Source: Chloroflexota bacterium
Lineage (GTDB): Bacteria; Chloroflexota; Dehalococcoidia; UBA2979
NCBI GenBank assembly: GCA_009840945.1
Contig: VXMU01000118.1
Location: 2,454 to 66,453 of the forward strand
DNA length: 64,000 nt
Reading direction: 5' to 3'
Translations under genes and position numbers: made by a program
Notes under the pieces: model-generated
Told to the model about the DNA's origin: nothing
Database searches by the model: none
Seen by the model: only the letters and a program-made list of their open reading frames with translations
Shown here: one piece after another, positions 16,022-62,682 of the stretch
Position numbering within the stretch: the first letter of the stretch is position 1
Layout: the number at the start of each line of letters is the position of its first letter

Positions 16022-16216
16022 CTACATCGCGGTGCTGCGCCTATGAACTCGCAGAAGCGTTAGCCCAGGAAGACCAGCCTCTTCCCGAACCGCCGCTCCT
16101 TCGTCTGCCGTCCCCCACCACAGCGCACCGTCCGTATCGTTCGACCACCCGATGGGGCTTGCACTCGCCAGATACTGCTTATCTTGTTCGTTGGCCAGTA
16201 CCCAGACGTACGGCAT
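16022..16216 (-). CDS. Small hypothetical protein (64 aa)
   Basis: ATG 16216 has GGAGG 4-5 nt upstream (MPYVWVLANEQDKQYL...). It lies in a lower-GC non-coding-looking island and I recognise no family. Confidence 0.3.
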   Translation of the reverse strand: MPYVWVLANEQDKQYLASASPIGWSNDTDGALWWGTADEGAAVREEAGLPGLTLLRVHRRSTAM

Positions 16217-36146: not shown

Positions 36147-36410
36147 ATGGCAGCGAGCTTTGAACGTCAGGGGATCGACTTCTTCCTGGAAGAGCTGATT
36201 GCGGTGCTGGAGCTGCAAGCCGCACAGCCCGCCATCGTCATCGAGCCCCAGAAGATCTACGAGGCGATCGAGGCGCGGCTCAGGGAACGCGACGCCATCA
36301 CCCCGGACGAACACGCCGGCCGGGAGTACGCGTACTCGCTGGTGACGCGGCTCTACTTCCTCGCGAATCGCCCCTGGGACGAGCAGGGCAGCCCGGTCCC
36401 GGCGGGCTAG
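36147..36410 (+). CDS. Small hypothetical protein (87 aa)
   Basis: ORF with coding-like codon bias. Its TAG stop lies inside the IS481 target duplication. I recognise no family. Confidence 0.4.
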   Translation: MAASFERQGIDFFLEELIAVLELQAAQPAIVIEPQKIYEAIEARLRERDAITPDEHAGREYAYSLVTRLYFLANRPWDEQGSPVPAG

Positions 36411-36411
36411 C
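36406..36411. repeat. Left copy of the 6-bp target-site duplication GCTAGC
   Basis: Identical hexamer at 37449-37454, immediately outside the inverted repeats. Confidence 0.85.
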
Positions 36412-37387: not shown

Positions 37388-37448
37388 CCCCGAGTCTCGT
37401 TGGAGGTCCCTTTGCGATCAGGTGTCTCGCAGGTGTGTAGTCAGTACA
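36412..37448 (-). mobile_element. IS481-family insertion sequence, 1037 bp, apparently intact
   Basis: The terminal inverted repeats are 36412-36438 (TGTACTGACTACAGAGGTGTGAGACAC) and 37422-37448. They match at 23 of 27 positions, with the outer 13 bp and inner 7 bp identical. The element is flanked by a GCTAGC duplication, which fits the NCTAGN target known for IS481. Confidence 0.9.
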
Positions 37449-37454
37449 GCTAGC
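37449..37454. repeat. Right copy of the 6-bp target-site duplication GCTAGC
   Basis: See the left copy at 36406-36411. Confidence 0.85.
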
Positions 37455-37577
37455 CGGGGCAAGGCGCCGCTGCACCGGGCTCCCCCGAGCCCCGGCCCGT
37501 GCGGCTGCCCGTGCGCAGGGCGCTCGAGGTCGTAAGGGTGGCGGTTCGGCTGCGAGGGACGCGGCGAGCCTCGGCCT

Positions 37578-37856
37578 TCAGAGTCGCGGGAGACAATCGG
37601 CGCAGTACTGCACGTTGACGCCGGCGGCCGTCATGGCCCGAACCAGCGTGTCGTAGCGCTCCCAGCGGCCCACGGCCTTCTCACGGTGCGCCCACCTCGC
37701 CACGTGCCGGCCCGCCGCGCGGTGCAGCGTGTTGACGTGCGTCGGCGGGTCGAAGTTGACGAAGAAGCCTCGGAGGGCCAGCGGCGCATCGGGCGTGGCA
37801 CGCCTCACGTGGGACACCCTCACACCTGCAACGCACGAGTAGAGCCAGCGGATCAT
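37578..37856 (-). CDS. Small hypothetical protein (92 aa)
   Basis: ORF with high-GC3 codon bias, downstream of the PKS gene on the same strand. I recognise no family. Confidence 0.35.
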   Translation of the reverse strand: MIRWLYSCVAGVRVSHVRRATPDAPLALRGFFVNFDPPTHVNTLHRAAGRHVARWAHREKAVGRWERYDTLVRAMTAAGVNVQYCADCLPRL

Positions 37857-38146
37857 GCCACCGCGATATCACCGTCCCGTGACCGTTCGAGGCGAGTCGC
37901 CGTGATGTTCTGTAACCGTCAGACAGCTACAGCCGCGGTCACCGCGCTGATGCCGGATCCGCCGACTCGAGCGCCGAGGGGGCGCCCGTGTGCTGGCCAT
38001 CGAGGGGGATAGAGGCGCGGAGGAGACTGCACGAACGAGACCGGCGAGGGCGCGCGACGACCTCAGACTGCTGCTCCACGCGCTCGCCTGCCTGCTACGT
38101 CGCGCGCGTACGTTGCCGCCGCTCTGGGGCGAGGGCGGTGGGGTCG

Positions 38147-41100
38147 CTAGGCGTCGCCCGCAGCGGGTGAGCGCCTCGGCTCCATCCAGAATCGGCGACG
38201 CTGGAACGGGTAGCCCGGCAGCGCGATGCGCCGACGCGACTCGCCCGCGAACAGGCCATCGAAGGCGATCTCGACGCCCGACTCGTACACCCGGGCAACC
38301 GATCGCACGAACTCCTCGTATGGGTCCTCAATGTCCGCTCGCAGCACTCCGGGGACCACCGTGAACGCCTCGCCCGGTGGGACACCCGCCCCGGCGATCT
38401 CGACGACCAGGTCCGCGCCGCTCCCCGAGAGCGCATCCGCACGGAGCGCGGACGGCTGCGCGCGACGGAGCCAGTACGCTGCGTCGAACGTCTCGTCCGG
38501 GTCCACGGCTCGCCCGCTGACGCTGCTCAGCAGCGTGACGGACGGCCGCGCCGGCGTGGTGTCGCCGAGCGCCGCCTCGACATCGGCCAATGGCGCACCC
38601 GCGGGGGCTGTGCCGTCGCCGGTCGACAGACGCCCCAGGGCGACGGCGACGCGCATGCCGGTTTCGAGGTCCAGGACTCCCGCCGTGTGGGCTGCCGCCA
38701 ACTCGCCGGCCGCGCCTCCGCCCGCAACGACGGCCGGCTCGAGCCCGACGCTCGCCCAGAGCGCGGTCAGTGCGCACTGCACTGCGTAGCCGGCGGCCGG
38801 GTCCGAACGCGCGACATCCGAGTCGTCGTCGCCGAAGATCACGGCGAGCAGGGATTGCCCCGTCGCCGCCTCGAACGCCTCGGCGCAGCGGTCGAGGACG
38901 GCCCGTACGGCCGGCTCGGCCTCGTACAGGGATCGTGTGACGTCGGGCGATGGGTTGGCGTCGCTGCCATAGGCGAAGGCCACCCTGACCGCCGGTGAAG
39001 GCTGCGATCCGTCGTCCGGGTCCGTGACCGCGACCGCGCGGAGGCCCTCGGTCAGCGACTCGGCGTCGTGGAAGACGAGGCCCGCTCGGTGCGCGAAGTG
39101 GCGCCGGCCCGAGCCGGCTGTCCACGCGGCATCCGCCAGCGTGGCCTCGCTCGCTCGGCTCGCCGGTCCGTCGGCGGCGTACCGGTCGACCCACGATAGG
39201 TACGAACGCGCGAGGTCACGGAGAGCCGCATCCGTCCTCCCCGAGAGGGGGAGCAGGCGCGCCGTGCGCGCTTCCGCAGGCGCGGCCGATCCGTCGGCCG
39301 ACGGCCCGATGGGGTGGGGAGCCCCAGTCGCCCACGAGTCGTCGCCGGAGGCGTCCTCCGCGGGCCACACGGCTCCCTCGACCACCACGTGCGCGTTCGC
39401 GCCGAACAGGCCGAACGCGCTCACCCCGGCGATCGGCGCGCGGTCCGGGTGCGCGGGCCATGGCGTCGCCGAAGACGTGACGCGAAGCGGCAGACCGCCC
39501 CAGTCGAGGTGCGTCGAGGGGTTCTCGAAGTGCAGGTGGGCGGGGATCACGCCGCGTTGCATGGACAGCACCACCTTGATCAGGCTCGCAGCGCCCGAGG
39601 CCGACTCGAGGTGTCCGATGTTGGTCTTCACCGATCCGACCAGCAGCGGCTGACCCGGTTCCCGGTCCCGGCCGTAGACGGCCGCGGCCGCCTCGAGCTC
39701 GATCGCGTCGCCGAGCTCCGAGGCCACGCCGTGAGCCTCGAGGTAGTCGACGTCCGTCGGAGCGAGCCTCGCGTCCGACAGGGCGTCTTCGATGACGCGG
39801 CGCTGCGCCAGCCCGTTGGGCGCGGTCGGCGAGGCGCCTGAGCTGTTCTGGTTAACGGCTGATCCACGGACCACCGCCCAGATGCGGTCGCCGTCCGCCA
39901 CTGCATCGTCCAGGCGCTTGAGGAGCACCACGCCGCACCCCTCGCCGCGGACGTGACCATCCGCTGAGGCGTCGAACGTCCGGCATTCCCCGTCGGCGGA
40001 GAGCATCCCGAAGTCCGCCATGCCTCGCGTTGCGCGCGGCGAGAGGACTGCGTTGACGCCACCGGCGAGCGCGATGTCCACCTCGCCGCGGCGGAGCGCG
40101 CTCGCCGCGTGGTGCACTGCCACAAGCGCGGACGCGCAGACGACGTCGAACGGCAGGGCCGGTCCGTCTATCCCGAGCGCAAACGCCACGCGCCCGATGC
40201 CCTGCGGTCCGTTGACACCGGGGTAGCTGATGGGGCTCCCGTGCGCGGCCATCATGTCCTGGTACTCGCTGCCGCCGATGCCCGCGTAGAGGCCGGCGCG
40301 GCTGCCGCGCAGCCGGCCCGGGTCCACGCCCGCGTCCTCGAGCGCGTGCCAGCTCGTCTCCAGCAGCAGACGGAGCTGCGGGTCCATGTTGCGGGCCTCG
40401 ACCGGCGAGACGCGGAAGAACGACGCGTCGAACTGGTCGATCCCATCTACGAACGCCCCCTGGCGGTAGAGGGGTTCGCCCGCGGCTGCGTCGCCCTGCA
40501 GGCCCGACCATGCGCCGGAGCCGTTGCGCTGCTCGCTGACGCCGCTGGCGGCCGCGTCCAGCAGTCGCCAGAAGGCCGCGACGTCCTCCGCGCCGGGGAA
40601 GCGGCAGGCCATCCCGACGATCGCGACCGCGTCCTCCGCCACGGCGCTCCGAGGCGGCGCGAGCGGCTCGGGCGCAGCAACGGGCTGCGCCGGCGTCTCG
40701 TCGCCCGCGGCCTGCAGCGCCTCCACGAGGTGCGCGCCGAGGTCCTCCGCGTTGGGGTAGTCGAATGCGATCGTGTTCGAGGCGGTGTACACCCCGCCCA
40801 GTGCGTCGTTGAGCCGCGCGCGCAGCTCCAGCGCCATCAGCGAGTCGATGCCCAGCTCGAAGAAGGCGACGTTGGCCGCGGGCCTCGACGGCAGCCGCAG
40901 CAGCGTCTGCAGGAGGTCCTGCACGAACGCCACCAGGATGCCGTAGCGTTCGCCCTCGGGGGCCTCGCGCACCCGCGCCACCAGGTCGCCGGCCAGCGCG
41001 TCGGCCTCGTCGAAGTCGTCCGAGGCGGCCGTCAACAGCTCCTCGATGAGCGGCGGGACGCTGCGGAGACCGGCGGCGAACGTCGACCAGTCCATCGACG

Positions 41101-44100
41101 TGACCGCGCCGACGGCCAGGTCCTGCCGTACGAGCCGGTCGAGGGCGCGCACGCCCTGCTGGGGGGTCATCCACTCGGCGCCGGACGCCGCCAGCGTCGA
41201 CTCGATCCGTTCGCGGTGCTGCTCCGCCTCCCCGACGCCCAGCCACGCGCCCCACTGGACGGCCTGTCCGGGCAGGCCCAGCGCACGCCGGTGACGGGCG
41301 AGTTGGTCCAGGAACGCGTTCGCGGACGAGTAGTTGGCCTGGCCGGGGTTCCCCCGCACGCCCGACATGCTCGAGAAGAGGATGAAGAGGTCGAGGTCGA
41401 GCTGCTCGGTGGCGCGGTGCAGCTCCCAGGCGCCCAGCACCTTCGGCCACACGATCTCCTCGAAGCGCTCCCAGCTCTGGTTGATCAGCGCCGCATCGGA
41501 GAGCGCTCCGACGCTGTGGATCACGCCGCCGAGCGGCGGCAGCTGCTCATCGATCCGCGCGAGCATGTCCCGCAGCGCGCGGGCATCGGCGACGTCGGCG
41601 ATTTCGACCTGGACGGTCGCGCCCCGCTCGCGCAGCGAGCGGATCACGTCCTCGGCGGCCTCGTCGGGCGGTCGTCGCCCGTTGAGGACGATGACGCCCG
41701 CGCCGCGTTCGGCCAGCCAGCCCGCGACCGCGCCGCCGATGCCCCCGAGCCCGCCGGTCACGAGGTACGTACGGTCCTCGCGCAGCCGGCCCGTCGCGAT
41801 CGGCGAGGCCGTGAGGACCGCGACCTCGCCGCCGAGATCGGACATGGCGAAGTCCGCCGCGGCGGCTGCCTGGGCGACCGGCCATTGGCGCACGGGCGGC
41901 GCGTGAAGCTCGCCGGTGGCGAGGCGGGCGACCACGCTGCCGAGCGCGGCGCGCACCCGCGCCGGGTCGTCCTCGATGTAGTCCGCGAGGGAGGAACTCG
42001 CTTCCGCGTCGAGCTCGTCCAGGATGAGCGTGAGGGGAGCGGCGGCGAGGTCCGGCGCCCGCACGCCCGCGGGCGCGGGCACGGCCAGCGCCGACGGCAC
42101 CACGGCGGTCGGTCCGATCGCCTCGGAGGAGAGTCCCACGACGCGGTCATCGCCCCTGAAGCCTGTCACGTCGGGAGCAGCCTCGAGCACGCGGCCGCAC
42201 AGGACGCGGACGCCCTCGTCGGCTCCCGTGGCCTCGACGGCCACGCGGATCTCGCTGGCGGCGAGGGGGCGCTCCCCGGCGGGCTCCACTCGCAGGTCAC
42301 CATCCGGGTCGCGGGTGATGCGCCACTCGGCGTCCTCGGGCAGCGAGAGCTGTGGCGTGCCGTTGGCGCCTCGCACGAGCCTCGGCGCGCGGCGGTCGCC
42401 GGCGCGGTACGCGACCAGCGTCTCGCCGTCGGGGGCCAGCAGTTCGTCGATGAAGCCGTCGGGGAGCGCGTCCCCGTCCGGGTCGAGGTCGATCACCCTC
42501 GCGGGCAACCGCGCCAGCTCGCGCGTCACGACCTTGCCGAAGCCCCACAGCATTGCGCCGGCGAGCGCGCCGGTGTGCTCGTGATCGAGTACCTGCCCGC
42601 CCCGGCTGACGAACCAGACGCCGTGCTCGGGCTCCGCGTCGGCGTCGACCAGCCCCTGCACCAGCGCCAGCGCGCTGCCGGAGGCGTGCGTGACGTCCTG
42701 TCTCATCTCATCGGTCGTGGCGCCTGCCCCGTGGCCGTCGAGGGCGGCCAGATGCACCACGCCCCGCAGCGGAACGTCGTCGGGCAACGCCTCGACCATG
42801 GAACGCCATGATTCGCGCTGGTATGGGTCGACGAGGGCACCGGTTGGTCCGGGCCCGTCCGTCGGCGTGGCGCTCGCGATCACGACCGTCTGGTTGCGCG
42901 CCGCCAAATCGGCGGCGATGCGGTCTGCGACCCCGCCCCGGTCCGGCGAGAGGATCCACGCGCCGGGCGTATCGGCAGCGTCCCCGTCCGCCGCGTACGG
43001 GCGGTCGCGCCAGATCACCTCGTACATCAGGTCGTCGAGGGCGTCGACGGAGGAGAGGAGCGCGGCGCGCGTCGCCCGCTTCGCCGTGTAGCCGCTCACC
43101 CCGCCGATCGGCGCGCCGTCGCTGTCGTAGATCCAGATGTCGGCCTTGAGCACCTCGGGCGCGCCCGCCGGGGCAGCGGCCGCGCCTGCGTCGCGCATCT
43201 GCGCGCGGCACACCAGCCGCTCGGGGAGGGGGCCGTTGAGCCAGAGCCGCTCCCACCCGAACGGCATGTACGCCGCCGTGTCGTCCTCGCTCGCGCCGCG
43301 AGCGCCCGCCACCACCTGGAAGCAGGCGTCGAGGAGCAGGGGGTGGACATCGATGCCGCTACGGTCGACCTGACCCGGCAGGGAGATCTCGCCCAGCGCC
43401 TCGCCAGGCGACTGCCAGACGTCCGTCAGTCCGCGGAAGGCGGGGCCGAGGAAGACACCAGTGTTGCCGCGGGCGCGGTAGAGCGCGGACGCATCGCCGC
43501 GCGCCATCGCGGACTTGATGCTCGCTACGTCGATCGCCCCGGCGGCCGCGGCGGTCGCGGAGCCGGCCGAGACGCGACCGTCCACGTGCAGCGTCCACTC
43601 CGGGTCCGGCCCGCGACTGAACGCCTCGACGCGTCTCGCGCCGCTGCCGTTGCGGGGCGCGATGACGAGCTGCAGCCGCCGGCTCAGCTCACCATCGTCC
43701 GACTCCTCGGGGAACATGAGGGGGCTGTGCAGCTGCATGTCGTCGACGACGACCGCGTCCGACCCCTCGGCGAGTGCCGCCGAGGCAGCCATCGCCCCGT
43801 AGAGCGCGCCGGGCGCGACCACCCGTCCGAAGACGCGGTGGTCGGAGAGCCACGCCGGCTCGGACGGGTCGAGCTGGGTCTCGAACGAGACCTCGCCCGC
43901 CGGGGATTCGTGCCGCGTACCGAGCAGCGGGTGGCCGCTGTCCGCCCGGCGACGCTTGTGACCCTCGATCCAGTACCTGCTCAGCTGGAACGGATACCCG
44001 GGCACGCCCACGCGGCTCCGCCGCTCCCCCTGGTAGAGGCCCTCGAAGGCAACGTCGAGGCCGGCCTCGAACGCCTGGGCCACGGCCTCGGGGAAGCTCG

Positions 44101-46765
44101 TCTCCGCCTCGGTCCCGCCACGCTCGACGGGTCTGAGCATGCTGGGAATGACCACAGCCGCCCCGGGCGTGCCCGGAGGATTCGGCCAGATCATGCTCAC
44201 CATCGGCCCGAGGACCGCGTGCGGGCCGATCTCGATGACCGTATCGACGCCCATCTCGGCCGCCGTCTGGACGCCGTCCGCGAAGGCGACCGGCTGGCGC
44301 GCGTGGTGGCTCCAGTACGCGCCGTCGAGCGCCTGCCCCGGCTCGAGGAGCCGGCCGCTGACGTTGCTGATGAAGTCCACCCGCGGGGGCGCGACGGTTA
44401 CCTCGTTCGCGCGCGCCTCAAGCGCCGGCAGCACCGGCTCCAGCAGCGCGCTGTGGTAGACGCGGCTCATGGTCAGGCGTCGCACGCGCACTTCCTCGGC
44501 CTCGAAGCGCTCCGTGATGGCGTCGACTTCGTGCACGAGGCCGGTCACGACTTGGTTGACCCCGTTGTCGACGGCGATCCCCAGTGCGGCGCGTTCGGAG
44601 GTGGCGTTGACCTCGTCGATCATCGACTCGACGCGGTCGCGCGGCGCGAACACGGCCGCCATCGCGCCTTCCTCGGTGTCGGCGACGAGCCGTCCGCGGG
44701 CGATCGCGATGCGCATCCCGTCCTCGATGCTGAAGACCCACGCGGCCTGGGCCGCGGGAAGCTCGCCGAAGCTGTGGCCGATGACGACGTCCGGCCGGAC
44801 GCCGACGCTGGCCCACAGCGCGTTCAGCGCGCAGTCGAGCGCGTAGAGCGCCGGCTGCGTCCACTCACTCAGGTCGAGGTCGGCGTCATTCCGGCCGAAC
44901 ATCACGTCGAGGATCGAATCGCCGGTCTCCTCCACGTGGACCGCCTCGCAGCGGTCGAGAACGGCCCGGGCGACGGGCTCGGTGTCGTACAGCTCCCGGC
45001 CCATGCCGACCCACTGGCCGCCCTGCCCGGAGTAGGCGAAGGCCACCTTGCGCGACGACCCCGGCGGCGGTCCCGCCTCGGCGCCCGCGAGGTCGGCAAG
45101 GCGCTCGCGGAGCGACTCGGCGTCGTCGAACACCAGCCCCGCGCGGTGGTTGAAGCGGCTCCGGCCGACACTCGTCGTCCACGCGAGGTCGGCGAGCGCG
45201 TCCTGCGTCCATGCGCCGTCGCCAAGCCGGTCGAGGTAGCGCTGCGCCAGCTCGCGGAGCGCCGGGTCGTTCTTCGCCGACAGCGGCAGGACGCGTGTCA
45301 GTCGCGACTCGAGGGCCTCATCGGGGACGGCGAGGTCGGCGAAGGGCTCCTCCAGGGGCGCGTCCACGGTCTGGGCGGGTCCGGCGATCCAGTCCTCGGT
45401 CGGACTGCCGGCGATCTCGGTCTGCTCGAACCCCTCGACCACGAGGTGGGCGTTGGTGCCGGACATGCCGTAGGAGCTGACGGCGCCCCGAGGCGGCCGT
45501 CCCGGCGTGGCCGGCCAGGGTGTGGCCTCGCCGGTCACGCGCACGGGCAACTCGTCCCAGTCGATGTCCGGGCTGGGGTTGGCGAAGTGCAGGTGCTTCG
45601 GGATGAGCCCTCGGCGCATCGCGAGCACGGTCTTGATCAGGCCGGCCATCCCGGCGGCCGACTCCATGTGGCCGACGTTGGTCTTCACCGAGCCGATCAG
45701 CAGCGGGCTTTCCGGGTCGCGGCCTTCAGCGTACACCCTGGCGAGCGCGGCCACCTCGATGGGGTCGCCCACCGCCGTCCCGGTCCCGTGCGCCTCCAGG
45801 TACTGGACGTCCGAGGGGGCCAGGTCCGCGCGCGCGAGGGCGTCGCGCAGGACCGTGACCTGCGCGGGCTCGTTGGGGACGGTGTACCCGCTGCTGGCGC
45901 CGCCGTGGTTCACGGCCGTGCCGCGCAGCACGCCCCAGATGCGGTCGCCGTCGGCGAGCGCCTCGTCCAGCCGCTTGAGCACGACCACGCCGCAGCCCTC
46001 GGCGCGCACGAACCCGTTGGCGGAGGCGTCGAACGCCTTGCACTGGCCGTCGGGCGAGAGGATGCCGGCAATCGTGCGGGCCTCGAAGAGCCGGGGGTCG
46101 AGGATCACGTTCACGCCCCCGGCGATCGCCAGGTCCAGCTCACGTTGATGCAGCGCCGTGACGCCCTGGTGCACCGCGACCAGGGACGACGCGCAAGCGG
46201 CGTCGGTCACCGTCGTGTGACCCTCGAGGCCGAGCACGAACGCGACGCGGCCGCTGACGCCGTTGAGGTTCGTGCCGATCCCGGCGTAGAGCCCGACCGC
46301 GGGGTCGGGCTGCTCGGCGGCCTCGTCGAGCCACTCGAGCACGAGGTGGCGGTAGTCCATGTTGCTGATGCCGGTGAAGACGCCGGTACGGCTGCCCTTC
46401 AACCCATCCGGGTCGAGTCCCGCATCCTCCAGCGCGCGCCAGCTGGTCTCCAGCATCAGCCGATGCTGGGGGTCCAGCGTCTCCGCCTCGACAGGCGAGA
46501 TGCGGAAGAACGCCGGGTCGAAGAGGTCGATGTCGTCCAGGAGTCCCGCGAAGCGTGAGGCGTCACCCGCGACGTCCGTGTATGGGAAGATCTGGCCGAA
46601 GCGCCCGGCCCCGGACCCCGGGTCGCCCTCGGTGATGGCGTTCTCGCCGCCGTCCAGCAGGCGCCAGAACGCGTCGAGGTCGGGTGCGCCTGGGAAGCGG
46701 CATGCCATCCCCACGATGGCGATCGGCTCGGCGGGCTCGTTCGTGGCGCTGTGAGGTTCCAACAC
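38147..46765 (-). CDS. Type I polyketide synthase, 2872 aa: KS-AT-DH-psiKR-(ER remnant)-KR-ACP-KS-(AT remnant)
   Basis: Domain motifs were read from the translation (residue numbers from my own count, which totals 2872):
- KS1: DAACASS (C191), EAHGTGT, KTNVGH.
- AT1: GHSFGE (S665).
- DH: HPLLGTRHESP and LLLDACFQ.
- KR: YLVTGGLGGIG and NYSSAN.
- ACP: LGIDSL (S1975).
- KS2: VVCASAL (C2210), EAHG, KTNIGH.
- Final ~265 aa: AT-like, but without GHSxG. Confidence 0.95.
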   Translation of the reverse strand: MLEPHSATNEPAEPIAIVGMACRFPGAPDLDAFWRLLDGGENAITEGDPGSGAGRFGQIFPYTDVAGDASRFAGLLDDIDLFDPAFFRISPVEAETLDPQHRLMLETSWRALEDAGLDPDGLKGSRTGVFTGISNMDYRHLVLEWLDEAAEQPDPAVGLYAGIGTNLNGVSGRVAFVLGLEGHTTVTDAACASSLVAVHQGVTALHQRELDLAIAGGVNVILDPRLFEARTIAGILSPDGQCKAFDASANGFVRAEGCGVVVLKRLDEALADGDRIWGVLRGTAVNHGGASSGYTVPNEPAQVTVLRDALARADLAPSDVQYLEAHGTGTAVGDPIEVAALARVYAEGRDPESPLLIGSVKTNVGHMESAAGMAGLIKTVLAMRRGLIPKHLHFANPSPDIDWDELPVRVTGEATPWPATPGRPPRGAVSSYGMSGTNAHLVVEGFEQTEIAGSPTEDWIAGPAQTVDAPLEEPFADLAVPDEALESRLTRVLPLSAKNDPALRELAQRYLDRLGDGAWTQDALADLAWTTSVGRSRFNHRAGLVFDDAESLRERLADLAGAEAGPPPGSSRKVAFAYSGQGGQWVGMGRELYDTEPVARAVLDRCEAVHVEETGDSILDVMFGRNDADLDLSEWTQPALYALDCALNALWASVGVRPDVVIGHSFGELPAAQAAWVFSIEDGMRIAIARGRLVADTEEGAMAAVFAPRDRVESMIDEVNATSERAALGIAVDNGVNQVVTGLVHEVDAITERFEAEEVRVRRLTMSRVYHSALLEPVLPALEARANEVTVAPPRVDFISNVSGRLLEPGQALDGAYWSHHARQPVAFADGVQTAAEMGVDTVIEIGPHAVLGPMVSMIWPNPPGTPGAAVVIPSMLRPVERGGTEAETSFPEAVAQAFEAGLDVAFEGLYQGERRSRVGVPGYPFQLSRYWIEGHKRRRADSGHPLLGTRHESPAGEVSFETQLDPSEPAWLSDHRVFGRVVAPGALYGAMAASAALAEGSDAVVVDDMQLHSPLMFPEESDDGELSRRLQLVIAPRNGSGARRVEAFSRGPDPEWTLHVDGRVSAGSATAAAAGAIDVASIKSAMARGDASALYRARGNTGVFLGPAFRGLTDVWQSPGEALGEISLPGQVDRSGIDVHPLLLDACFQVVAGARGASEDDTAAYMPFGWERLWLNGPLPERLVCRAQMRDAGAAAAPAGAPEVLKADIWIYDSDGAPIGGVSGYTAKRATRAALLSSVDALDDLMYEVIWRDRPYAADGDAADTPGAWILSPDRGGVADRIAADLAARNQTVVIASATPTDGPGPTGALVDPYQRESWRSMVEALPDDVPLRGVVHLAALDGHGAGATTDEMRQDVTHASGSALALVQGLVDADAEPEHGVWFVSRGGQVLDHEHTGALAGAMLWGFGKVVTRELARLPARVIDLDPDGDALPDGFIDELLAPDGETLVAYRAGDRRAPRLVRGANGTPQLSLPEDAEWRITRDPDGDLRVEPAGERPLAASEIRVAVEATGADEGVRVLCGRVLEAAPDVTGFRGDDRVVGLSSEAIGPTAVVPSALAVPAPAGVRAPDLAAAPLTLILDELDAEASSSLADYIEDDPARVRAALGSVVARLATGELHAPPVRQWPVAQAAAAADFAMSDLGGEVAVLTASPIATGRLREDRTYLVTGGLGGIGGAVAGWLAERGAGVIVLNGRRPPDEAAEDVIRSLRERGATVQVEIADVADARALRDMLARIDEQLPPLGGVIHSVGALSDAALINQSWERFEEIVWPKVLGAWELHRATEQLDLDLFILFSSMSGVRGNPGQANYSSANAFLDQLARHRRALGLPGQAVQWGAWLGVGEAEQHRERIESTLAASGAEWMTPQQGVRALDRLVRQDLAVGAVTSMDWSTFAAGLRSVPPLIEELLTAASDDFDEADALAGDLVARVREAPEGERYGILVAFVQDLLQTLLRLPSRPAANVAFFELGIDSLMALELRARLNDALGGVYTASNTIAFDYPNAEDLGAHLVEALQAAGDETPAQPVAAPEPLAPPRSAVAEDAVAIVGMACRFPGAEDVAAFWRLLDAAASGVSEQRNGSGAWSGLQGDAAAGEPLYRQGAFVDGIDQFDASFFRVSPVEARNMDPQLRLLLETSWHALEDAGVDPGRLRGSRAGLYAGIGGSEYQDMMAAHGSPISYPGVNGPQGIGRVAFALGIDGPALPFDVVCASALVAVHHAASALRRGEVDIALAGGVNAVLSPRATRGMADFGMLSADGECRTFDASADGHVRGEGCGVVLLKRLDDAVADGDRIWAVVRGSAVNQNSSGASPTAPNGLAQRRVIEDALSDARLAPTDVDYLEAHGVASELGDAIELEAAAAVYGRDREPGQPLLVGSVKTNIGHLESASGAASLIKVVLSMQRGVIPAHLHFENPSTHLDWGGLPLRVTSSATPWPAHPDRAPIAGVSAFGLFGANAHVVVEGAVWPAEDASGDDSWATGAPHPIGPSADGSAAPAEARTARLLPLSGRTDAALRDLARSYLSWVDRYAADGPASRASEATLADAAWTAGSGRRHFAHRAGLVFHDAESLTEGLRAVAVTDPDDGSQPSPAVRVAFAYGSDANPSPDVTRSLYEAEPAVRAVLDRCAEAFEAATGQSLLAVIFGDDDSDVARSDPAAGYAVQCALTALWASVGLEPAVVAGGGAAGELAAAHTAGVLDLETGMRVAVALGRLSTGDGTAPAGAPLADVEAALGDTTPARPSVTLLSSVSGRAVDPDETFDAAYWLRRAQPSALRADALSGSGADLVVEIAGAGVPPGEAFTVVPGVLRADIEDPYEEFVRSVARVYESGVEIAFDGLFAGESRRRIALPGYPFQRRRFWMEPRRSPAAGDA
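38186..38980 (-). other. Vestigial AT-like domain (residues ~2596-2860) lacking the catalytic motifs
   Basis: AT1 has GQGGQW, VIGHSFGE and the ~65-aa small subdomain with YHS. AT2 has GSDANP, VVAGGGAAGE and a deletion in their place. Confidence 0.75.
39371..40633 (-). other. PKS domain KS2 (residues ~2045-2465), Cys/His/His present
   Basis: VAIVGMACRFPG ... FDVVCASALVAVH ... EAHGVASELGDAIE ... KTNIGHLESASG. Confidence 0.85.
40721..40948 (-). other. PKS integrated ACP (residues ~1940-2015)
   Basis: FFELGIDSLMALELRARL, attachment Ser1975. Confidence 0.85.
41231..41773 (-). other. PKS domain KR, catalytic half (residues ~1665-1845)
   Basis: TYLVTGGLGGIGGAVAGWLAERGA ... FSSMSGVRGNPGQANYSSANAFLD. 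Confidence 0.85.
43061..43936 (-). other. PKS domain DH (residues ~944-1235)
   Basis: HPLLGTRHESP (HxxxGxxxxP) and HPLLLDACFQ. Confidence 0.8.
44051..45043 (-). other. PKS domain AT1 (residues ~575-905), active-site GHSFG present
   Basis: AFAYSGQGGQW ... VIGHSFGELPAA ... RVYHSALLEP. The specificity motif is neither the classic HAFH nor YASH. Confidence 0.85.
45431..46729 (-). other. PKS domain KS1 (residues ~13-445), catalytic Cys/His/His present
   Basis: IAIVGMACRFPG ... DAACASSLVAVH ... EAHGTGTAVGDPIE ... KTNVGHMESAAG. Confidence 0.9.
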
Positions 46766-46787
46766 GATGCCGCCCCTTCTCCGACTC

Positions 46788-48524
46788 TTACCGCGATCCC
46801 TCTACGAGTACTGTAACGATATCGATTCCGTAGTACTGCTGATGGCGGACCGAGGATGCACGGGATCGGAGCAATCGGAGCGACATCTCGTCGACATCCG
46901 GCAGCTCGGCATCTTCACTGAGGTACGCGAGTTGATCTTCCAGGTTCTCTTGGTCCGAGGAGCCCACGAACTCCAGCTCCACCATTCCGGCCTGGGGGCG
47001 CGCGGTGATGGTCAACCTTCCAGCGCCGTCTGCGCTGTCGCCATTCCAGCCCGCGAGGCTGGACACGGTTTCCTCGCCGACGGAGCGCAGGCGCTCAGTC
47101 GATGGTTCGTTCCACCCGAGGCCGGACGCGAGGTCGCGCATGAACTCGTCGATGGCCGGGAGAGCCGCCGCATCCATCGCGGCCTCCAGGCGTCGGGGGC
47201 GTCCCCCGGTGTACTCGAGGATGAGGCTGAGCAGAATGGCGGAGAGCGCGCCGTACAACACGCCGCTGCCGAAGACTGCCCCCAGCTCGTCCCCGAGCAC
47301 ATGCGGGATGACATCGTGATTGTCGAGTCCAAGGCCAAGCGCGAGCGAGAGCCCGATAGTCAGCGTCTTCTGCTGGTCGAGGCCACCCTGGAAGGCGGTC
47401 TGAGCGCCGCCCACGAAGATGATGCCCAGCGCCAGGATCAGGTAGGCGCCCATGACGGGACTGGGGATCGTCAGGAGGACCGCGCCCACCTTCGGAAAGA
47501 CGGCCGCGACGAGGAAAATCACGGCGATGGCGTAGCCGACACGCCGGGAAGCGACTCCCGTGAAGCTAATCAGCGAGGTGCTGAACGAGGCGTACGGCTG
47601 CACCGGGGGCGTCCCAGTGACCCCCGCGAGGAGCATCCCCAACCCGTTGGTGCTCACAGTGCCCTGTACATACCGGAAATCGACCGCCCGGGGCTCGCGT
47701 TGGGACGCTCGCTGAATGATCATGCTGTCGCTGATGGCCTTCGTGCAGAGGACCAGCGTTAGCACCACGAAGGTTGGAAGCAGCGCCCAGAACTCGGGAC
47801 CCGGGGTGAGGTCGAGACCCGGGAACTGCGCTTCCGGAAAGCCGAGCCACGGCGCATCGAGCACTCGCTGGATCTCGTACTGACCGAGCGCCGCCGTCAG
47901 CGCGCAGCCGGCGCCGATGCTGATCATCGTCGACCACTGGCGCCACGGGCCCGAGCCTCGCAGCACGAACGCCACCGCGACCACGAGGGTCAGGGTACCC
48001 ACGGCCGGACCGGCGAAGGCGGGGGCGCCTTCGGGCAGTTCCGTGAGGCGGTCGGTTCCGAATCGCACGAGCGTCACGGCGACGAGCATCAGGACGGTGC
48101 CCGACACGACGGGCGTGATGATGCGACGCAGCACCGGGAGCCAGAGCGCGACGGCGAACTGCACGAATGCACAGACCACCAGGAGGCTCGCCAGCGTGTC
48201 GGGACCTCCCTCGGAGAGGGCCACGATCGTGATCGCGACGAACTGGACGGTGGGACCGGTGATCACGATGTGCCCGGACCCGAGCCGCGGCGCACGGGTG
48301 GCGTGCAGAGCGGTGATCACGGCGTTGATGAGCAGTGCACAGAGGACAGCCCAGTTCAGGTACTCGTCACCCTGATCGGCCGCCCGCACGGAGATGGCCA
48401 CGATCAGGATCGTCGGCGCCAGTACGAGCGCGACCCCCTGCAAGCCGACGGCGGTCGCAACGAGGGGCGAACACGCCTCATCCGGCGTGTACCGCACGTT
48501 TTCGTTCACGCCCTGTGCTGCCAT
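46788..48524 (-). CDS. NCS2 (xanthine/uracil/ascorbate permease)-like transporter with a ~134-aa cytoplasmic C-terminal extension
   Basis: 578 aa. The N-terminal ~440 aa are polytopic with AVGLQGVALVLAPTILIV (compare the GLQH motif of NCS2). The last 134 aa are soluble and not part of the permease fold. The gene sits 22 bp upstream of the PKS start. Confidence 0.7.
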   Translation of the reverse strand: MAAQGVNENVRYTPDEACSPLVATAVGLQGVALVLAPTILIVAISVRAADQGDEYLNWAVLCALLINAVITALHATRAPRLGSGHIVITGPTVQFVAITIVALSEGGPDTLASLLVVCAFVQFAVALWLPVLRRIITPVVSGTVLMLVAVTLVRFGTDRLTELPEGAPAFAGPAVGTLTLVVAVAFVLRGSGPWRQWSTMISIGAGCALTAALGQYEIQRVLDAPWLGFPEAQFPGLDLTPGPEFWALLPTFVVLTLVLCTKAISDSMIIQRASQREPRAVDFRYVQGTVSTNGLGMLLAGVTGTPPVQPYASFSTSLISFTGVASRRVGYAIAVIFLVAAVFPKVGAVLLTIPSPVMGAYLILALGIIFVGGAQTAFQGGLDQQKTLTIGLSLALGLGLDNHDVIPHVLGDELGAVFGSGVLYGALSAILLSLILEYTGGRPRRLEAAMDAAALPAIDEFMRDLASGLGWNEPSTERLRSVGEETVSSLAGWNGDSADGAGRLTITARPQAGMVELEFVGSSDQENLEDQLAYLSEDAELPDVDEMSLRLLRSRASSVRHQQYYGIDIVTVLVEGSR

Positions 48525-48539
48525 GCGGCGTCGCCCCCG

Positions 48540-49457
48540 TCAGCTCCGGAGCAACGCCAGCGAGTCCAGGAACTCGCGCATGACGTTCACGCATTCCGAA
48601 GGCTGCTGCAGTTGCAGCATGTGAGTGGCGTCGGGGAGAAAGTCATAGTCGACCCCCACGATGTCACCCAGATCGAAGGTAGGCAGGTACGAATACGGGA
48701 GCGTGGGGTCTGCGCCGATGACCTTGACCGGGCACTGGACGGACACGAGGTCCACCAGGACGGCGAACATCCGCGCGTACTCGATGATCTGCGCTTCGTA
48801 TTCGGGTGGACATCTGAGCTCGTACCCGCGTCCGTCGGGGGCTTCGCGGAGTGTTGTTTCCGCGGCGAGGAGCCCGACGCCATCTACGACGTCATGAAAG
48901 GTGGGTGTGAAGCCGATCAGGTCGGCGAAGTTCTGCTTGCTGCGGCAGCGGTTTGACCGGCCCCGCGCCCGTTGCGCCTGATCGATGGCCGCGTCGTCGA
49001 ACTCCTCGTGGAGTACGCCCGGCCTGCGCAAGGGGGGATCGAAGAGCACGAGCGCATCGAGGTTGCCCCCGCTGCTCGGCGCCAGCAGTGCGGCCAGTGA
49101 CGAGACGGAGTGATAGACGCCAACCGTTGGCTTCGGTCCCCACTCAGCGCCGATCGCTTCGATCACAAGGTCGTGGTCGGCCGCCAGCGTGGGGAGGGTG
49201 TGGCCCTCGAGCGGGCCGACCGTGTTCTGGCCGTGGTTCCGCAGGTCGTGGACGACGACATCGAACTCGTCCGTCAGGAGCGACCAGAACGGGTAGTAGA
49301 GGTCAATCGCGAGGCCGTTGCCATGGCTCAGCACCAGTCTCGGTCCGTCCGGATTCCCATGACGGCGCACCCTGATGGCGGTGTCCGCGCCGACCTGGAG
49401 GTCAAGCACGGAGTCGGGCTCGGGCACCTCCCACACGGTCATTGCCGAGTCCATCAC
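48540..49457 (-). CDS. Alpha/beta hydrolase (paralog 1)
   Basis: LVLSHGNGLAIDLYYPFW, nucleophile elbow GVYHSVSS, C-terminal His in DATHMLQLQQP. It is roughly 60% identical by eye to the product of 51648-52538. The start may be ATG 49442. Confidence 0.8.
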   Translation of the reverse strand: MMDSAMTVWEVPEPDSVLDLQVGADTAIRVRRHGNPDGPRLVLSHGNGLAIDLYYPFWSLLTDEFDVVVHDLRNHGQNTVGPLEGHTLPTLAADHDLVIEAIGAEWGPKPTVGVYHSVSSLAALLAPSSGGNLDALVLFDPPLRRPGVLHEEFDDAAIDQAQRARGRSNRCRSKQNFADLIGFTPTFHDVVDGVGLLAAETTLREAPDGRGYELRCPPEYEAQIIEYARMFAVLVDLVSVQCPVKVIGADPTLPYSYLPTFDLGDIVGVDYDFLPDATHMLQLQQPSECVNVMREFLDSLALLRS

Positions 49458-49480
49458 GCAACTCCGGACTTCGCCGCTGC

Positions 49481-50188
49481 CTACCGGTGCAACTCGTAGG
49501 CGACCGCCGCGGCGTACTCGTCATCGCCAAGATCTTCCACGTGCCAGCTTACTCCCGGCGAGTCGGGTAGCACGACAGTGCCGTCCGTACGACCTTCCCG
49601 CACCGCTCGGGGAATCTCAAAGGCGGTCGGTTCCAGCACCAGGCCGGCGCCGTGGGCCTTGAGCAGCGCCTCCTTCATGGTCCAGAGCCTGAAGAACAGG
49701 TGGAGTCGGGGGGCACCGTCGAGCGCGGCGAGCTCGGCGCGCTCCTCGGGTCCGAACGTGGCGTCGACCAGCAGGTCGAAGTTGCGGTGCTCGACGCGCT
49801 CCTCCACGTCCACGCCCACGCGACCCTCGGCCGCAAGTGCTATCAGGCCGTGCCGGCCGCCGTGGCTGACGTTGAAGCCAACGCGCACCGGCTCGCCCCG
49901 CAACCGGGCGAAGGGCTTCCCGTGTGGCGCGATTCCGAACGAGAGCTGGTCATTGCAGCAGCCGAGGTGGCTGGTGAGCAGGGCGCGCAGCGCGGCGCGG
50001 CACAGCGTGAACTGCCGGCGCGGGCCTGCGTAGGCAAACCCGCGCCGGCGGCGATGCTCGGCCTCGTCCAGCAACGCGAGCGCGGCCGACTCACGCGCCG
50101 AATCCTCGGCGAGGTCGACGTGGAATACGGTGACGCTACCCGATGTCTTCAGCGTCTCCCACCAGGCAGCGGGGACACCTGACGACAC
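49481..50188 (-). CDS. Sfp-type 4'-phosphopantetheinyl transferase
   Basis: 235 aa with FNVSHGG, VGVDVEER and WTMKEALLKAHG. Confidence 0.88.
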   Translation of the reverse strand: MSSGVPAAWWETLKTSGSVTVFHVDLAEDSARESAALALLDEAEHRRRRGFAYAGPRRQFTLCRAALRALLTSHLGCCNDQLSFGIAPHGKPFARLRGEPVRVGFNVSHGGRHGLIALAAEGRVGVDVEERVEHRNFDLLVDATFGPEERAELAALDGAPRLHLFFRLWTMKEALLKAHGAGLVLEPTAFEIPRAVREGRTDGTVVLPDSPGVSWHVEDLGDDEYAAAVAYELHR

Positions 50189-50238
50189 GTTCGCGACTGG
50201 GCTTCGTGACCGATCGTTCGGAGGAACGATGGAAGCGG

Positions 50239-50484
50239 TTAGGCGGCCAGGCCGTCCAGGTGCTCGACCAGGTCTCGCGGGGTCAGGAGCTCGGCGAACT
50301 GCTCGCGCGAGATCTCGACACCGAACTCCTCGTTGACGAGCCGCCAGAAGGCGACGATGTCGGCCGAGGCGACGCCCGCGTCTGCCATGTTGCGGTCGAG
50401 GTCCAGCGCGCCACCGGCGCTGCGCCCCTCGATCTCAATGTTGTCGTCGATGATCTTGACGATGCGCTCTGCCGTCGTTGCCAT
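50239..50484 (-). CDS. Discrete acyl carrier protein (81 aa) with an atypical attachment motif
   Basis: ATG 50484 has GGAG 7 nt upstream. The protein has a four-helix ACP-like pattern: ...NMADAGVASADIVAFWRLVNEEFGVEI... GVAS replaces the usual G(L/I)DS. Confidence 0.7.
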   Translation of the reverse strand: MATTAERIVKIIDDNIEIEGRSAGGALDLDRNMADAGVASADIVAFWRLVNEEFGVEISREQFAELLTPRDLVEHLDGLAA

Positions 50485-50646
50485 ATGCGTACTCCGTTCC
50501 GTGCCCATGCCCATTCTCGTGGATGGCACGATGGTACGTCCGAAGTGACGGCACCAGCAACCGGCATTGCCACGAATGGAACAACGAATGAACTCGTTAT
50601 GATCCGTACGTCGGGCAGCATCGGAGCAGGGAGCAGGTGGGCGGCA

Positions 50647-51447
50647 TCACAGGCCCTCGAACCGTGGCTCGCGGCGCTCCGCGAACGCGCGGAACCCCTC
50701 CCTGGTGTCGCGGCTGGCGAAGAGGCCAAGCTGCGCCGTCCACTCATACTCCAGGTAGTGGATCATCGTTAGTTCCGTCGAACGCTGTAAGAGTCTGCGC
50801 ATGGCCGTGTAGGCGAGCGGTGGGCCGCTCGCTATCTTCCGCGCATACGCCAGCGCCTCGTCCAGGAGCTGGTCGTCGGGCACGACACGGTTGGCCAGGC
50901 CCAGCTCCAGGCACCGTTCGGCGCTCACCGGGTCGCCGTCGTAGAGCAGTTCGTGAGCGCGACCCAGGCCGACGATCTGCTGGAGTCGGTAGGCGGCGCC
51001 GAAGTCAGACGCGAGACCGCGTTTGATGAAGATCGATCCCATCCTGGCCGTCTCTGCCATCAGCCGAACGTCGCAGCAGAGCGCGAGGCTGAAGCCACCT
51101 CCGGCCGCCATGCCGTTGACGGCCCCGATGACGGGCACGTCTGATTCCGAGAAGGCCACGGCCACCCGTGTCGACCAACCGCGGCGGTCGAGTCGCTCTT
51201 CACGGGTCCGCACGAACGTGGCGACGGTGAGTCGGCCGCTCTCGCCTATCTCGGCGCCCGCGCAGAACGCGTCCCCCGCCCCGGTGAGCACAAGGGCGTT
51301 GACGTCTTCGCGCTCGTTGGCCTCGGCAAGCGCCTCAACCAGGAGCTGCAGCATCTCCAGGTCCATGGTGTTCATGGCGTCCGGGCGGTTCAGGGTCACA
51401 AGCATGACGCCATCGTCCACGCTCGTGAGGACAGCAGGGTCGGACAT
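50647..51447 (-). CDS. Enoyl-CoA hydratase/isomerase (crotonase) family protein
   Basis: ATG 51447 (MSDPAVLTSVDDGVMLVTLNRPDAMN) with a GGGAG RBS. Oxyanion-hole motifs are LTGAGDAFCAGAEI and NGMAAGGGFSLAL. Confidence 0.88.
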   Translation of the reverse strand: MSDPAVLTSVDDGVMLVTLNRPDAMNTMDLEMLQLLVEALAEANEREDVNALVLTGAGDAFCAGAEIGESGRLTVATFVRTREERLDRRGWSTRVAVAFSESDVPVIGAVNGMAAGGGFSLALCCDVRLMAETARMGSIFIKRGLASDFGAAYRLQQIVGLGRAHELLYDGDPVSAERCLELGLANRVVPDDQLLDEALAYARKIASGPPLAYTAMRRLLQRSTELTMIHYLEYEWTAQLGLFASRDTREGFRAFAERREPRFEGL

Positions 51448-51647
51448 GCGCACTCCCAACTGCTGGTGCTGCGTGAGTGGACCAGACGTTAGCACGACTC
51501 CCACAGCGGTCGTCGTGGTGGGGTGCGATACTCCCGGCTCAAGCCATGCCCCGGGATGGCGCGGCGCGTCGAGCTCCGGGCGGCGGTCCAGACTCAGGCC
51601 GATCTACGCTGCGCGCAGGGCGAAGCGAGGATTCAGGAGCACGGGTC

Positions 51648-52538
51648 ATGTGGCAAGTGCCCGAACCCCTCTCAACGGTGGACGTAGCCGTGGACGAGGA
51701 CACCACCATCGTCCTGCGTCGCCACGGGAATCCCGACGGGCCCCGCCTGGTGCTGAGCCACGGGCTGGGCCTGGCGGTTGACCTCTACTATCCGTTCTGG
51801 TCGCAGCTCACCGCGCAGTTCGACCTGTTCGTCTACGACATGCGGAACCACGGCCAGAACCCGCTCGGGCCGCTTGCCGCGCACACCTTGCCCTCGCTTG
51901 CCCGGGATCACGACCTGGTGCTCGAGGCGGTCGATCGTCACTTCGGTGCGAAACCAAAGGTGGGCGTATGCCACTCCGTCGGAGCGCTCGCGATGCTCCT
52001 GTCACCCAGCAGCGGTGCCGGGCTCTCGGCGCTGGTCCTCTACGACCCGCCCATCAGGAAGCCCAACGTCGACCGCGACGCGTACGACGACGCAGGCGCG
52101 CAACTCGCTGACTCGGCCCGGCGGCGTAGGGAGTGGTTCCCCACAAGAGAGCAATTCATCGAGAGCGCGAACTCCGCTCAGACCTTCGCGCGCGTCGTCC
52201 CCGGGGTGGTTGAATTGCTCGCGGATACTACATTGCGCGACGACCCCGAGGGCGAGGGGTACGTGCTGCGATGTCCCTCGTCGTACGAGGCGCAGATCAT
52301 CGAGTACGGGCGCGTTTTCGTTTCGGTGGTGGACCTGTCTTCGTACCGCTGCCCGATCAAGGTCATCGGCGCGGACCCGACGCTCCCGTTCTCGTATCTC
52401 CCCACGTTCGACCTCCACGAGATGGTGGAGGTCGACTACGACTTCCTGCCCGACACCACCCACTTCCTGCAACTGGAACAGCCCGATGAATGCATCGCGC
52501 TGATGCTCGCGTTCCTCGAGCAGCGGGACCTGCTGTAG
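51648..52538 (+). CDS. Alpha/beta hydrolase (paralog 2), divergent from the crotonase gene
   Basis: ATG 51648 has AGGAG 9 nt upstream. MWQVPEPLSTVDV..., nucleophile elbow GVCHSVGA and DTTHFLQLEQP. Confidence 0.8.
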   Translation: MWQVPEPLSTVDVAVDEDTTIVLRRHGNPDGPRLVLSHGLGLAVDLYYPFWSQLTAQFDLFVYDMRNHGQNPLGPLAAHTLPSLARDHDLVLEAVDRHFGAKPKVGVCHSVGALAMLLSPSSGAGLSALVLYDPPIRKPNVDRDAYDDAGAQLADSARRRREWFPTREQFIESANSAQTFARVVPGVVELLADTTLRDDPEGEGYVLRCPSSYEAQIIEYGRVFVSVVDLSSYRCPIKVIGADPTLPFSYLPTFDLHEMVEVDYDFLPDTTHFLQLEQPDECIALMLAFLEQRDLL

Positions 52539-52751
52539 CGGCCGCGACGGCGCCCGCCGCCACGACTGGAAGAGGGCGGAGCCCGGTCCGCAGCAGCGGC
52601 AGCACGTCGTCCGCGAACCTCGTGGCAGCGGCCCCGCCTCGGGCCGTCGGGCCGATGCTATTCGGCATTCCATCGTCCGCGCTATCCGCCACTGAGCGAG
52701 CGAGTAGTCGCTCGTGCGCCCGTCGCCTCTGCACGTCACGGTCGGTGGCCA

Positions 52752-62424: not shown

Positions 62425-62682
62425 CCAGTCGTACACGGGGCACCACCCTCGGGAGATGCTCCGGCGGGACTGACGTTCGCCCGTGGCGGTCGGTTCGCCG
62501 CGATCAGCCAGCAGAGCCCGGGCGTTCTGTTGTCCAACGCGGAGCATCAATGCGGGCTCAAACGATAGACGACGGGACGCACGAGACTGTCAGAGATCTA
62601 TGAGATACGGCCCCAGAGGCGTAAAGTATCTGTTAGTATTTCGTGACGGCGTTCACCAATACCGAATGACAGGAGGGGAACG

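Follow-up and report, generated by a model that had tools for sequence, protein, structure and literature searches.

The sponge symbiont ubiquitous (Sup) enzymes are unusual, small monomodular polyketide synthases (PKSs) that have been known since 2007 and are the proposed makers of mid-chain methyl-branched fatty acids (PMC4245539, PMC3908369, PMC9426513). They are confined to high-microbial-abundance sponges, where they dominate (a single specimen yielded as many as 123 variants), and were later found in metagenome-assembled genomes (MAGs) of Chloroflexota, Spirochaetota, Proteobacteria, and Acidobacteriota (PMC4245539, PMC3908369, PMC9426513). Here we describe a block of seven genes at positions 38147–52538 of a 64-kb stretch of DNA from a Chloroflexota bacterium (contig VXMU01000118.1; the whole stretch is referred to below as the window). 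The largest gene encodes a type I PKS of 2872 residues (38147–46765, minus strand), which an earlier note had described as an orphan of unrecognised type with an incomplete assembly line. We consider it rather probable that the block is a Sup-type monomodular lipid cluster, resembling fatty acid synthases (FASs), and a clade-specific variant of that type in sponge-associated Chloroflexota. The Sup group and supA are reportedly due to Fieseler et al. 2007 and Hochmuth et al. 2010. SupA is reported to carry an extra ketosynthase-acyltransferase (KS-AT) pair at its C-terminus, with adjoining genes for a free acyl carrier protein (ACP), a phosphopantetheinyl transferase (PPTase), and a hydrolase.

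A second group from sponge symbionts, Swf (sponge widespread FAS-like), consists of SwfA with the domain order KS-AT-DH-ER-KR-ACP, the reductase/sulfotransferase SwfB, and the radical SAM protein SwfC, and is recognised by the KS motifs DPQ[I/V]R and HATGT and the AT motifs GHSSGE, IAFH, and QCALVEL (PMC3908369). Like SwfA, the window PKS is a monomodular, FAS-like enzyme of a sponge symbiont and has no loading module. However, its first KS reads DPQH and HGTGT, its first AT reads GHSFGE, and it has a terminal KS-AT° (an AT without its catalytic serine), a feature that the descriptions of Swf do not mention. The block contains no homologue of SwfB or SwfC, and the missing reductase/sulfotransferase and radical-SAM genes, together with the differing KS and AT motifs, exclude Swf identity.

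Architecture and distribution of the PKS family

The PKS begins directly with a KS. Pfam, the translation, and alignments to full-length relatives give the domain order KS1-AT1-DH-ψKR-ER remnant-KR-ACP-KS2-AT2°, in agreement with the earlier reading, and no methyltransferase (MT) domain is present. All domains lie on the minus strand. KS1 (45584–46729, residues 13–394) has an intact Cys191/His326/His366 triad, and AT1 (44201–45040, residues 576–855), with the active-site motif GHSFGE, is the sole catalytically intact AT. The DH (43058–43933, residues 945–1236) carries the motifs HPLLGTRHESP and DACFQ. The KR (41243–41770, residues 1666–1841) and the integrated ACP (40727–40924, residues 1948–2013, GIDS motif) are likewise recognised by Pfam. 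KS2 (39524–40633, residues 2045–2414), which is 53% identical to KS1, retains its Cys2210/His/His triad. AT2° (38150–38968, residues ~2600–2872) has an AT-like fold and has lost the nucleophilic serine, reading GGGAAGE where AT1 reads GHSFGE; its Pfam match is weak, covering only profile positions 16–120 of the 319 of Acyl_transf_1. YPFQRRRFW, the post-AT linker motif, closes the protein. When the last 317 residues are rescanned with Pfam at E ≤ 1, Acyl_transf_1 is the only match, so that the PKS indeed has neither a terminal carrier nor a thioesterase (TE), R, or C release domain.

We searched with the KS2-AT° portion (residues 2040–2872). The search returns 5263 proteins at E ≤ 1e-30, most of them 47–60% identical to the query, from MAGs of Chloroflexi, Nitrospira, Gemmatimonadetes, Acidobacteria, Latescibacteria, Proteobacteria, and others. 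A genome scan restricted to one genome per species finds at least 562 loci, and the best 78 all come from MAGs and span more than 10 phyla. The loci were surveyed by tblastn with the domains and accessory proteins of the window and with MT and ER domains taken from a relative, and co-occurrence was counted over 65 species-level loci of at least 20 kb from many phyla, a neighbour being a gene within 10 kb of the PKS. The order KS-AT-DH-MT-ER-KR-ACP-KS-AT is found in 63 of the 65 loci. Such a canonical, MT-containing FAS-like module fits the proposal that Sup enzymes make methyl-branched chains. A hydrolase of the type of the cluster hydrolase Hyd1 lies near the PKS in 54 loci, a free ACP in 41, an NCS2 (nucleobase:cation symporter-2)-like permease in 34, and a PPTase in 30. 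A crotonase of any kind is found in one locus only, at 35% identity, and is probably unrelated. Locus L001 has ACP, PPTase, hydrolase, permease, and PKS in the same order as the window, and in locus L002 the PKS comes first and ACP, PPTase, and hydrolase follow. The suggestion that the free ACP, the PPTase, and the hydrolase act with the PKS in trans is therefore plausible.

The C-terminal KS-AT° is conserved in its details. The KS2 cysteine is kept in 111 of 111 homologues, and its two histidines in 107 and 111. At the nucleophile position of AT2, 99 of 115 homologues have glycine and five have serine. Past the YPFQ linker motif, the proteins extend for a median of 14 residues (115 homologues). 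In relatives without a nearby insertion sequence (IS), the PKS stops at the same place and is followed by unrelated genes. Judged from these comparisons, the terminal KS-AT° is a family-wide native design, neither a product of decay nor of IS truncation. The AT2 had been called a dead AT-like remnant; the loss of its serine stands, but it is a conserved feature of the family and not a local remnant. For the same reason, an assembly line that ends after KS-AT° is not incomplete but has the native architecture of the family.

In a neighbour-joining tree of 41 KS domains, which covers the family only, the KS1s and the KS2s form two separate clades, and in both of them the window groups with L001 and L066. 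One domain seems to break this pattern, but this is an artefact of labelling: in its locus, just one KS passed the length filter.

The window PKS thus resembles the Sup group in its direct KS start, in its one complete, ACP-bearing module followed by a carrier-less KS-AT°, in the DPQxR and HGTGT-type motifs of KS1, and in its membership of a huge and diverse family that extends over several phyla including Chloroflexota. The free ACP, PPTase, and hydrolase genes beside it match the reported setting of supA. At the level of the family, the agreement extends to all points of the published Sup description that were compared. Two differences stand against these likenesses. First, the C-methyltransferase and the full reducing loop, part of the Sup description, are not found in the window PKS; without an MT and with a gutted ER, it cannot make the proposed methyl-branched saturated chain. 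Second, the block contains a duplicated hydrolase and a PaaG-like crotonase; 64 of the 65 canonical loci lack them.

Sup-like KS-AT-DH-MT-ER-KR-ACP modules are also repeated inside multimodular PKSs of MAGs (L073, L076 from Bryobacterales, and L132), indicating that the module type is not confined to monomodular clusters.

Domain losses and accessory genes of the Chloroflexota variant

Compared with three full-length canonical proteins (L011, L016, and L018), the window PKS has lost the whole C-methyltransferase, which comprises ~390 residues in canonical members. The junction is clean and lies between residues 1259 and 1267 (42965–42989). The ER remnant (41801–42328, residues ~1480–1655) goes undetected by Pfam and is evident in the alignment with full-length relatives, as the earlier note had supposed. 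It keeps the GroES-like N-terminal part and the last ~60 residues of the domain, and the Rossmann NADPH-binding core between them is deleted. In the Chloroflexi MAG locus L066, the MT is deleted in the same way and nothing of the ER is left; in L001, tblastn finds no match to MT or ER.

Closer relatives were found through a search with Hyd1, and the named ones are Chloroflexi MAGs. L084 and L088 carry all seven genes in the same arrangement as the window, so that the block is syntenic as a whole. In L085 and L089, the portion of the block that fits on their shorter contigs matches the window. The PKSs of L084, L085, and L088 are 86–87% identical to the window PKS and have the same ER remnant. 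A separate search for MT-less variants with the middle region (residues 1100–1750) returned 57 short proteins, none with full coverage, and missed the known close relatives. Two leads from it were dropped, one being a multimodular PKS and the other a fragmentary contig.

To compare constraint among the domains, we estimated dN/dS by the Nei-Gojobori method for the window against L088 and L084. The values are 0.04–0.06 for AT1, 0.06–0.08 for KR, 0.11–0.12 for KS1, 0.13–0.15 for KS2, 0.16–0.21 for DH, and 0.17–0.18 for the integrated ACP. AT2° reaches 0.35–0.41 (partial coverage) and the ER remnant 0.50. KS1, AT1, DH, KR, ACP, and KS2 are under strong purifying selection and are maintained. Constraint is relaxed in AT2°, which behaves as a scaffold, and in the ER remnant, which is drifting.

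The six remaining genes of the block lie upstream of the PKS, and Pfam confirms every family call that had been made for the cluster from the sequence. Their open reading frames, like that of the PKS, are present in the ORF list at the positions first reported. The gaps between the co-directional genes are small (22, 15, 23, 50, and 162 bp, counted from the PKS), and a divergent gap of 200 bp follows.

The NCS2-like permease (46788–48524, minus strand, 578 residues) matches Xan_ur_permease at 1e-37. It scores below all NCBIfam cut-offs, far under the subfamily levels, and has a C-terminal extension of ~140 residues. Permeases of this kind are recurrent neighbours of Sup-type PKSs across phyla.

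Hyd1 (48540–49457, minus strand, Abhydrolase_6) is a family-specific alpha/beta serine hydrolase and a candidate thioesterase. Among 120 homologues, H44-G45, H115-S116, H278, and several aspartates are invariant or nearly so. Its AlphaFold2 model (pLDDT 86.9) matches generic alpha/beta hydrolases in Foldseek, and the second-best match is the off-loading thioesterase CurM (E 1.5e-15). The predicted fold is compatible with a thioesterase role but is not decisive. Hyd2 (51648–52538, plus strand, Abhydrolase_6) is a divergently transcribed paralogue with 60% identity to Hyd1 and is conserved in L084 and L088.

The PPTase (49481–50188, minus strand) is of the Sfp/HetI type according to Pfam (ACPS and AASDHPPT_N) and NCBIfam. 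The free-standing ACP (50239–50484, minus strand; 81 residues, 246 bp; PP-binding) keeps its serine in a GVAS motif and is 95–96% identical in L084 and L088.

The crotonase-fold protein (50647–51447, minus strand, ECH_1) is 97% identical in L084 and 76% in L088. Its closest solved relatives are the PaaG structures of Thermus thermophilus (E 3e-49). At the positions of the two hydratase glutamates it reads GGGFS and GSIF, that is, Ser and Phe; the register against Glu144 and Glu164 of rat ECH is our own reading of its GGGCE...GQPE motif. In the HMMER alignment, PaaG shows the same substitutions, and the Asp of GLASDFG in the crotonase pairs with the catalytic Asp136 of PaaG. PaaG is homologous to Δ3,Δ2-enoyl-CoA isomerases, and its Asp136 shuttles a proton between C2 and C4 (PMC7497051). 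Because the hydratase glutamates are replaced and an Asp aligns with PaaG Asp136, the active site is predicted to be isomerase-like and not hydratase-like. The protein is no canonical enoyl-CoA hydratase, since both catalytic glutamates are missing. Nor does it qualify as an equivalog of PaaG: it scores below every NCBIfam cut-off (162 bits against 345 for PaaG TIGR02280; 209 against 400 for the best model, EchA19), no paa genes lie nearby, and what it shares with PaaG is the catalytic Asp and the overall active-site pattern. A beta-branching cassette, to which an ACP and a crotonase could belong, was rejected, as Pfam finds no HMG-CoA synthase homologue among the cluster genes.

Such a crotonase was met in this Chloroflexota clade alone. 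When metagenomes are scanned with its sequence, only generic crotonases of at most 42% identity are returned, and the link between crotonase gain and ER loss therefore rests on few genomes.

Genomic setting and host

The accessory genes are less GC-rich than the PKS (65–70% versus 73%), as had been noticed, and the same holds at third codon positions (GC3; 83–90%, or 83–86% without the 246-bp ACP gene, versus 91%). A complete, apparently intact IS481-family element lies downstream of the PKS, where it had been noted, at 36405–37455, 691 bp past the PKS stop codon. It is 1051 bp long, occurs as a single copy in the window, has GCTAGC at both ends and terminal inverted repeats of 34 nt with 88% identity, and encodes a transposase of 326 residues. 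The element lies outside the conserved seven-gene block. The 691-bp spacer has no match in the contigs of relatives that were fetched. Promoter and terminator scans of 37400–52800 found nothing.

From base composition and the IS, the locus had been taken for a mosaic or an acquisition. This view is not supported. The GC3 offset recurs in L001, a ~60%-identical relative, in which ACP, PPTase, and hydrolase are lower and the permease is not. The flanks are also conserved. The end of a cadherin-repeat protein upstream of the cluster (52752–60065) is 73% identical to a protein upstream of the cluster in L084, and a zinc-type alcohol dehydrogenase (ADH) at 33605–34702 (minus strand), downstream of the cluster, has a counterpart of 89% identity in L001, likewise downstream of the PKS (15008–16108). 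Recent horizontal acquisition, as argued from GC content, is thus rejected. Because the block is shared with L084 and L088, the flanks are syntenic, and L001 shows the GC3 offset too, the locus looks inherited within the clade and not recently acquired. The cluster proteins of the window and L001 are only 50–72% identical, below the 89% of the flanking ADH; the cluster has then either changed far more quickly than the DNA beside it or been swapped in at a conserved position.

In a related Chloroflexi genome (GCA_026705685; L086 9444–10909 and L087 730–2195), only a 5'-truncated crotonase followed by a hydrolase is found. The crotonase of L086 has 170 residues and is 88% identical to that of the window, and the hydrolase is 86% identical to Hyd1. 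No ACP, PPTase, permease, or PKS lies beside these two genes. The region around them is syntenic with the window at ~8.7–29 kb. The pair looks like a decayed remnant of the cluster, indicating that loss of the cluster does occur.

As the best reading, the window is part of the genome of a sponge-associated Chloroflexota, because it carries a GPP34-P450 fusion and the nearest Hyd1 matches bear Chloroflexi names. The fusion of GPP34 (Golgi phosphoprotein 3) and cytochrome P450 is a protein of 674 residues (1027–3051, plus strand). Fusions of this kind ('GPP34_L') are reported only from sponge-symbiotic bacteria, and a Chloroflexota bin of the SB0661 series is linked to Ircinia ramosa (PMC11706023). 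In the literature, SB06xx bin names, which occur among the relatives, tie to Ircinia ramosa and to sponge-symbiotic Poribacteria. Other MAG series among the relatives presumably come from sponges too.

Two giant cadherin/Ig-repeat proteins adjoin the cluster upstream, at 52752–60065 (minus strand, 2437 residues) and 59971–62550 (minus strand, 859 residues). They look like eukaryote-like adhesion proteins. Elsewhere in the window, a protein of 776 residues (19694–22024, minus strand) contains a full-length animal haem peroxidase domain (E 3.5e-147), and its gene is flanked by a 5'-nucleotidase gene and genes for CO-dehydrogenase/xanthine-dehydrogenase-type subunits.

Proposed chemistry and competing explanations

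In the Sup-type reading of the cluster, KS1 would be loaded with a fatty-acyl primer, AT1 would supply malonate, and KR and DH would act to leave a 2-enoyl chain on the internal ACP. This end point would follow from the lack of ER and MT in module 1; in canonical members of the family, a saturated 2-methyl chain would result instead. With the non-catalytic AT° as its scaffold, KS2 would then take over the chain from the internal ACP and join it, in a decarboxylative condensation, to malonate on the free ACP; this ACP may be malonylated in trans by AT1 or by FabD. The chain would be extended further or released by the family-specific serine hydrolase. A lipid-like acyl chain, and not a complex polyketide, would be made.

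Several points weigh against assigning the cluster to Sup. The assignment is drawn from architecture, distribution, and the literature description and not from a direct comparison with SupA. The MT domain that defines the Sup proposal is absent from the window PKS. In the literature, we found no functional test or demonstrated product of a Sup enzyme. Beyond the domain calls we infer every step, namely the primer, the single or iterative use of module 1, the loading of the free ACP, the condensation by KS2, and the targets of the hydrolases. In addition, the conserved NCS2-like permease has no place in a lipid pathway of this kind.

A more specific version of the Sup-type reading, which we offer tentatively and hold to be possible at best, is that the module was re-tooled in this Chloroflexota clade from methyl-branching to oxygen-independent mid-chain unsaturation. 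Module 1, without ER and MT, would halt at the trans-2-enoyl thioester, the PaaG/FabM-like crotonase would move the double bond to the 3-position and thereby out of conjugation, and KS2 would elongate the chain onto the free ACP with the double bond kept mid-chain, by the logic of FabA/FabB or FabM/FabF. FabM is a crotonase-fold enoyl-ACP isomerase. The likeness to FabM, FabA-FabB, and PaaG lies in a crotonase that lacks the hydratase glutamates and stands beside a module predicted to stop at the enoyl stage and a further KS. However, the crotonase is orthologous to neither FabM nor PaaG and is only a predicted isomerase, and its host system is a type I PKS, not a type II FAS. If this is true, the cluster would represent the anaerobic route to unsaturated fatty acids in type I PKS form, and nature would have run an experiment showing that, in sponge symbionts, cis double bonds and methyl branches can stand in for each other in one membrane role.

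Alternatively, the cluster could encode an iterative polyene or polyunsaturated synthase, in which KS1-AT1-DH-KR-ACP runs several rounds to give a conjugated polyene, KS2-AT° and the free ACP add a last unit or act as a device for chain length or transfer, and the hydrolases release the product. The domain set, KS-AT-DH-KR-ACP without a working ER, speaks for it, and for the related Swf enzymes a single complete module is taken to mean iterative use or one elongation (PMC3908369). The two hydrolases and the crotonase are also conserved. Polyene-forming iterative type I modules, such as the polycyclic tetramate macrolactam PKSs and the enediyne PKSs, share that domain set. However, the window PKS descends from a FAS-like, fully reducing, and methylating module, the ER remnant is still decaying, suggesting a recent change on an unchanged scaffold, and no feature of the sequence speaks to iteration. 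We regard this explanation as unlikely.

The earlier note had proposed a novel orphan cluster in which KS2 joins the acyl chains on the internal and the free ACP head to head, in the manner of Pks13 or OleA. There is a likeness, in that a condensing enzyme would act last in a lipid pathway that offers two carrier proteins, and the free ACP is conserved together with a terminal KS that lacks a carrier of its own. Pks13 has the order ACP-KS-AT-ACP-TE, with an active AT and TE, and depends on FadD32 and acyl-CoA carboxylase; OleA is of the non-decarboxylative thiolase type. In contrast, the window PKS has no serine in AT2, no TE, and no second integrated ACP, and the Cys-His-His triad of KS2 is that of elongating, decarboxylating KSs. 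Neither in the cluster nor among the window ORFs scanned did we find the partners of Pks13 (an acyl-AMP ligase, an acyl-CoA carboxylase for a route through a carboxylated chain, or a TE). The cluster type is not an orphan either. A condensation of this style is therefore unsupported, and we give it very little weight.

Still less probable is that the cluster is decaying and non-functional, the losses of MT, ER, and the AT2 serine together with the nearby IS being signs of pseudogenisation. The relaxed constraint on the ER remnant and AT2° would agree with this, as would the truncated crotonase and single hydrolase left in L086 and the IS481-family element 691 bp away. However, the 8.6-kb PKS ORF is free of frameshifts and stops, all catalytic domains have dN/dS values of 0.04–0.21 in comparisons with two relatives, identities of 76–97% to L084 and L088 are seen for crotonase, free ACP, and Hyd2, the loss of the AT2 serine is family-wide, and the block does not include the IS. 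A longer assembly line, cut by insertion of the IS481-family element or continued by PKS genes elsewhere, is hardly conceivable: the protein does end after KS-AT without a carrier or release domain and an IS does lie downstream, but homologues across phyla and IS-free relatives share the end point at the post-AT linker, by which truncation of the PKS is rejected, and no other KS-containing ORF is found among the window ORFs scanned. Decay and IS truncation are thus largely excluded by the dN/dS values and the conserved C-terminus.

The cluster is neither an orphan nor incomplete but a clade-specific variant of an abundant, biochemically uncharacterised family. Its type, unrecognised at first, fits the Sup group of sponge-symbiont PKSs, within a very large family. 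Few biosynthetic genes are as abundant in sponge microbiomes as those for Sup-type PKSs, and the variant is a natural domain-deletion experiment, in which MT and ER are removed and KS2, the free ACP, and the hydrolase are kept under strong selection. What it makes, set against what a canonical cluster makes, would bear on the methyl-branched fatty-acid hypothesis and on the hand-over between KS2 and the free ACP. For genome mining, the architecture should be filed with Sup-like lipid clusters and not as a truncated or novel drug-type assembly line.

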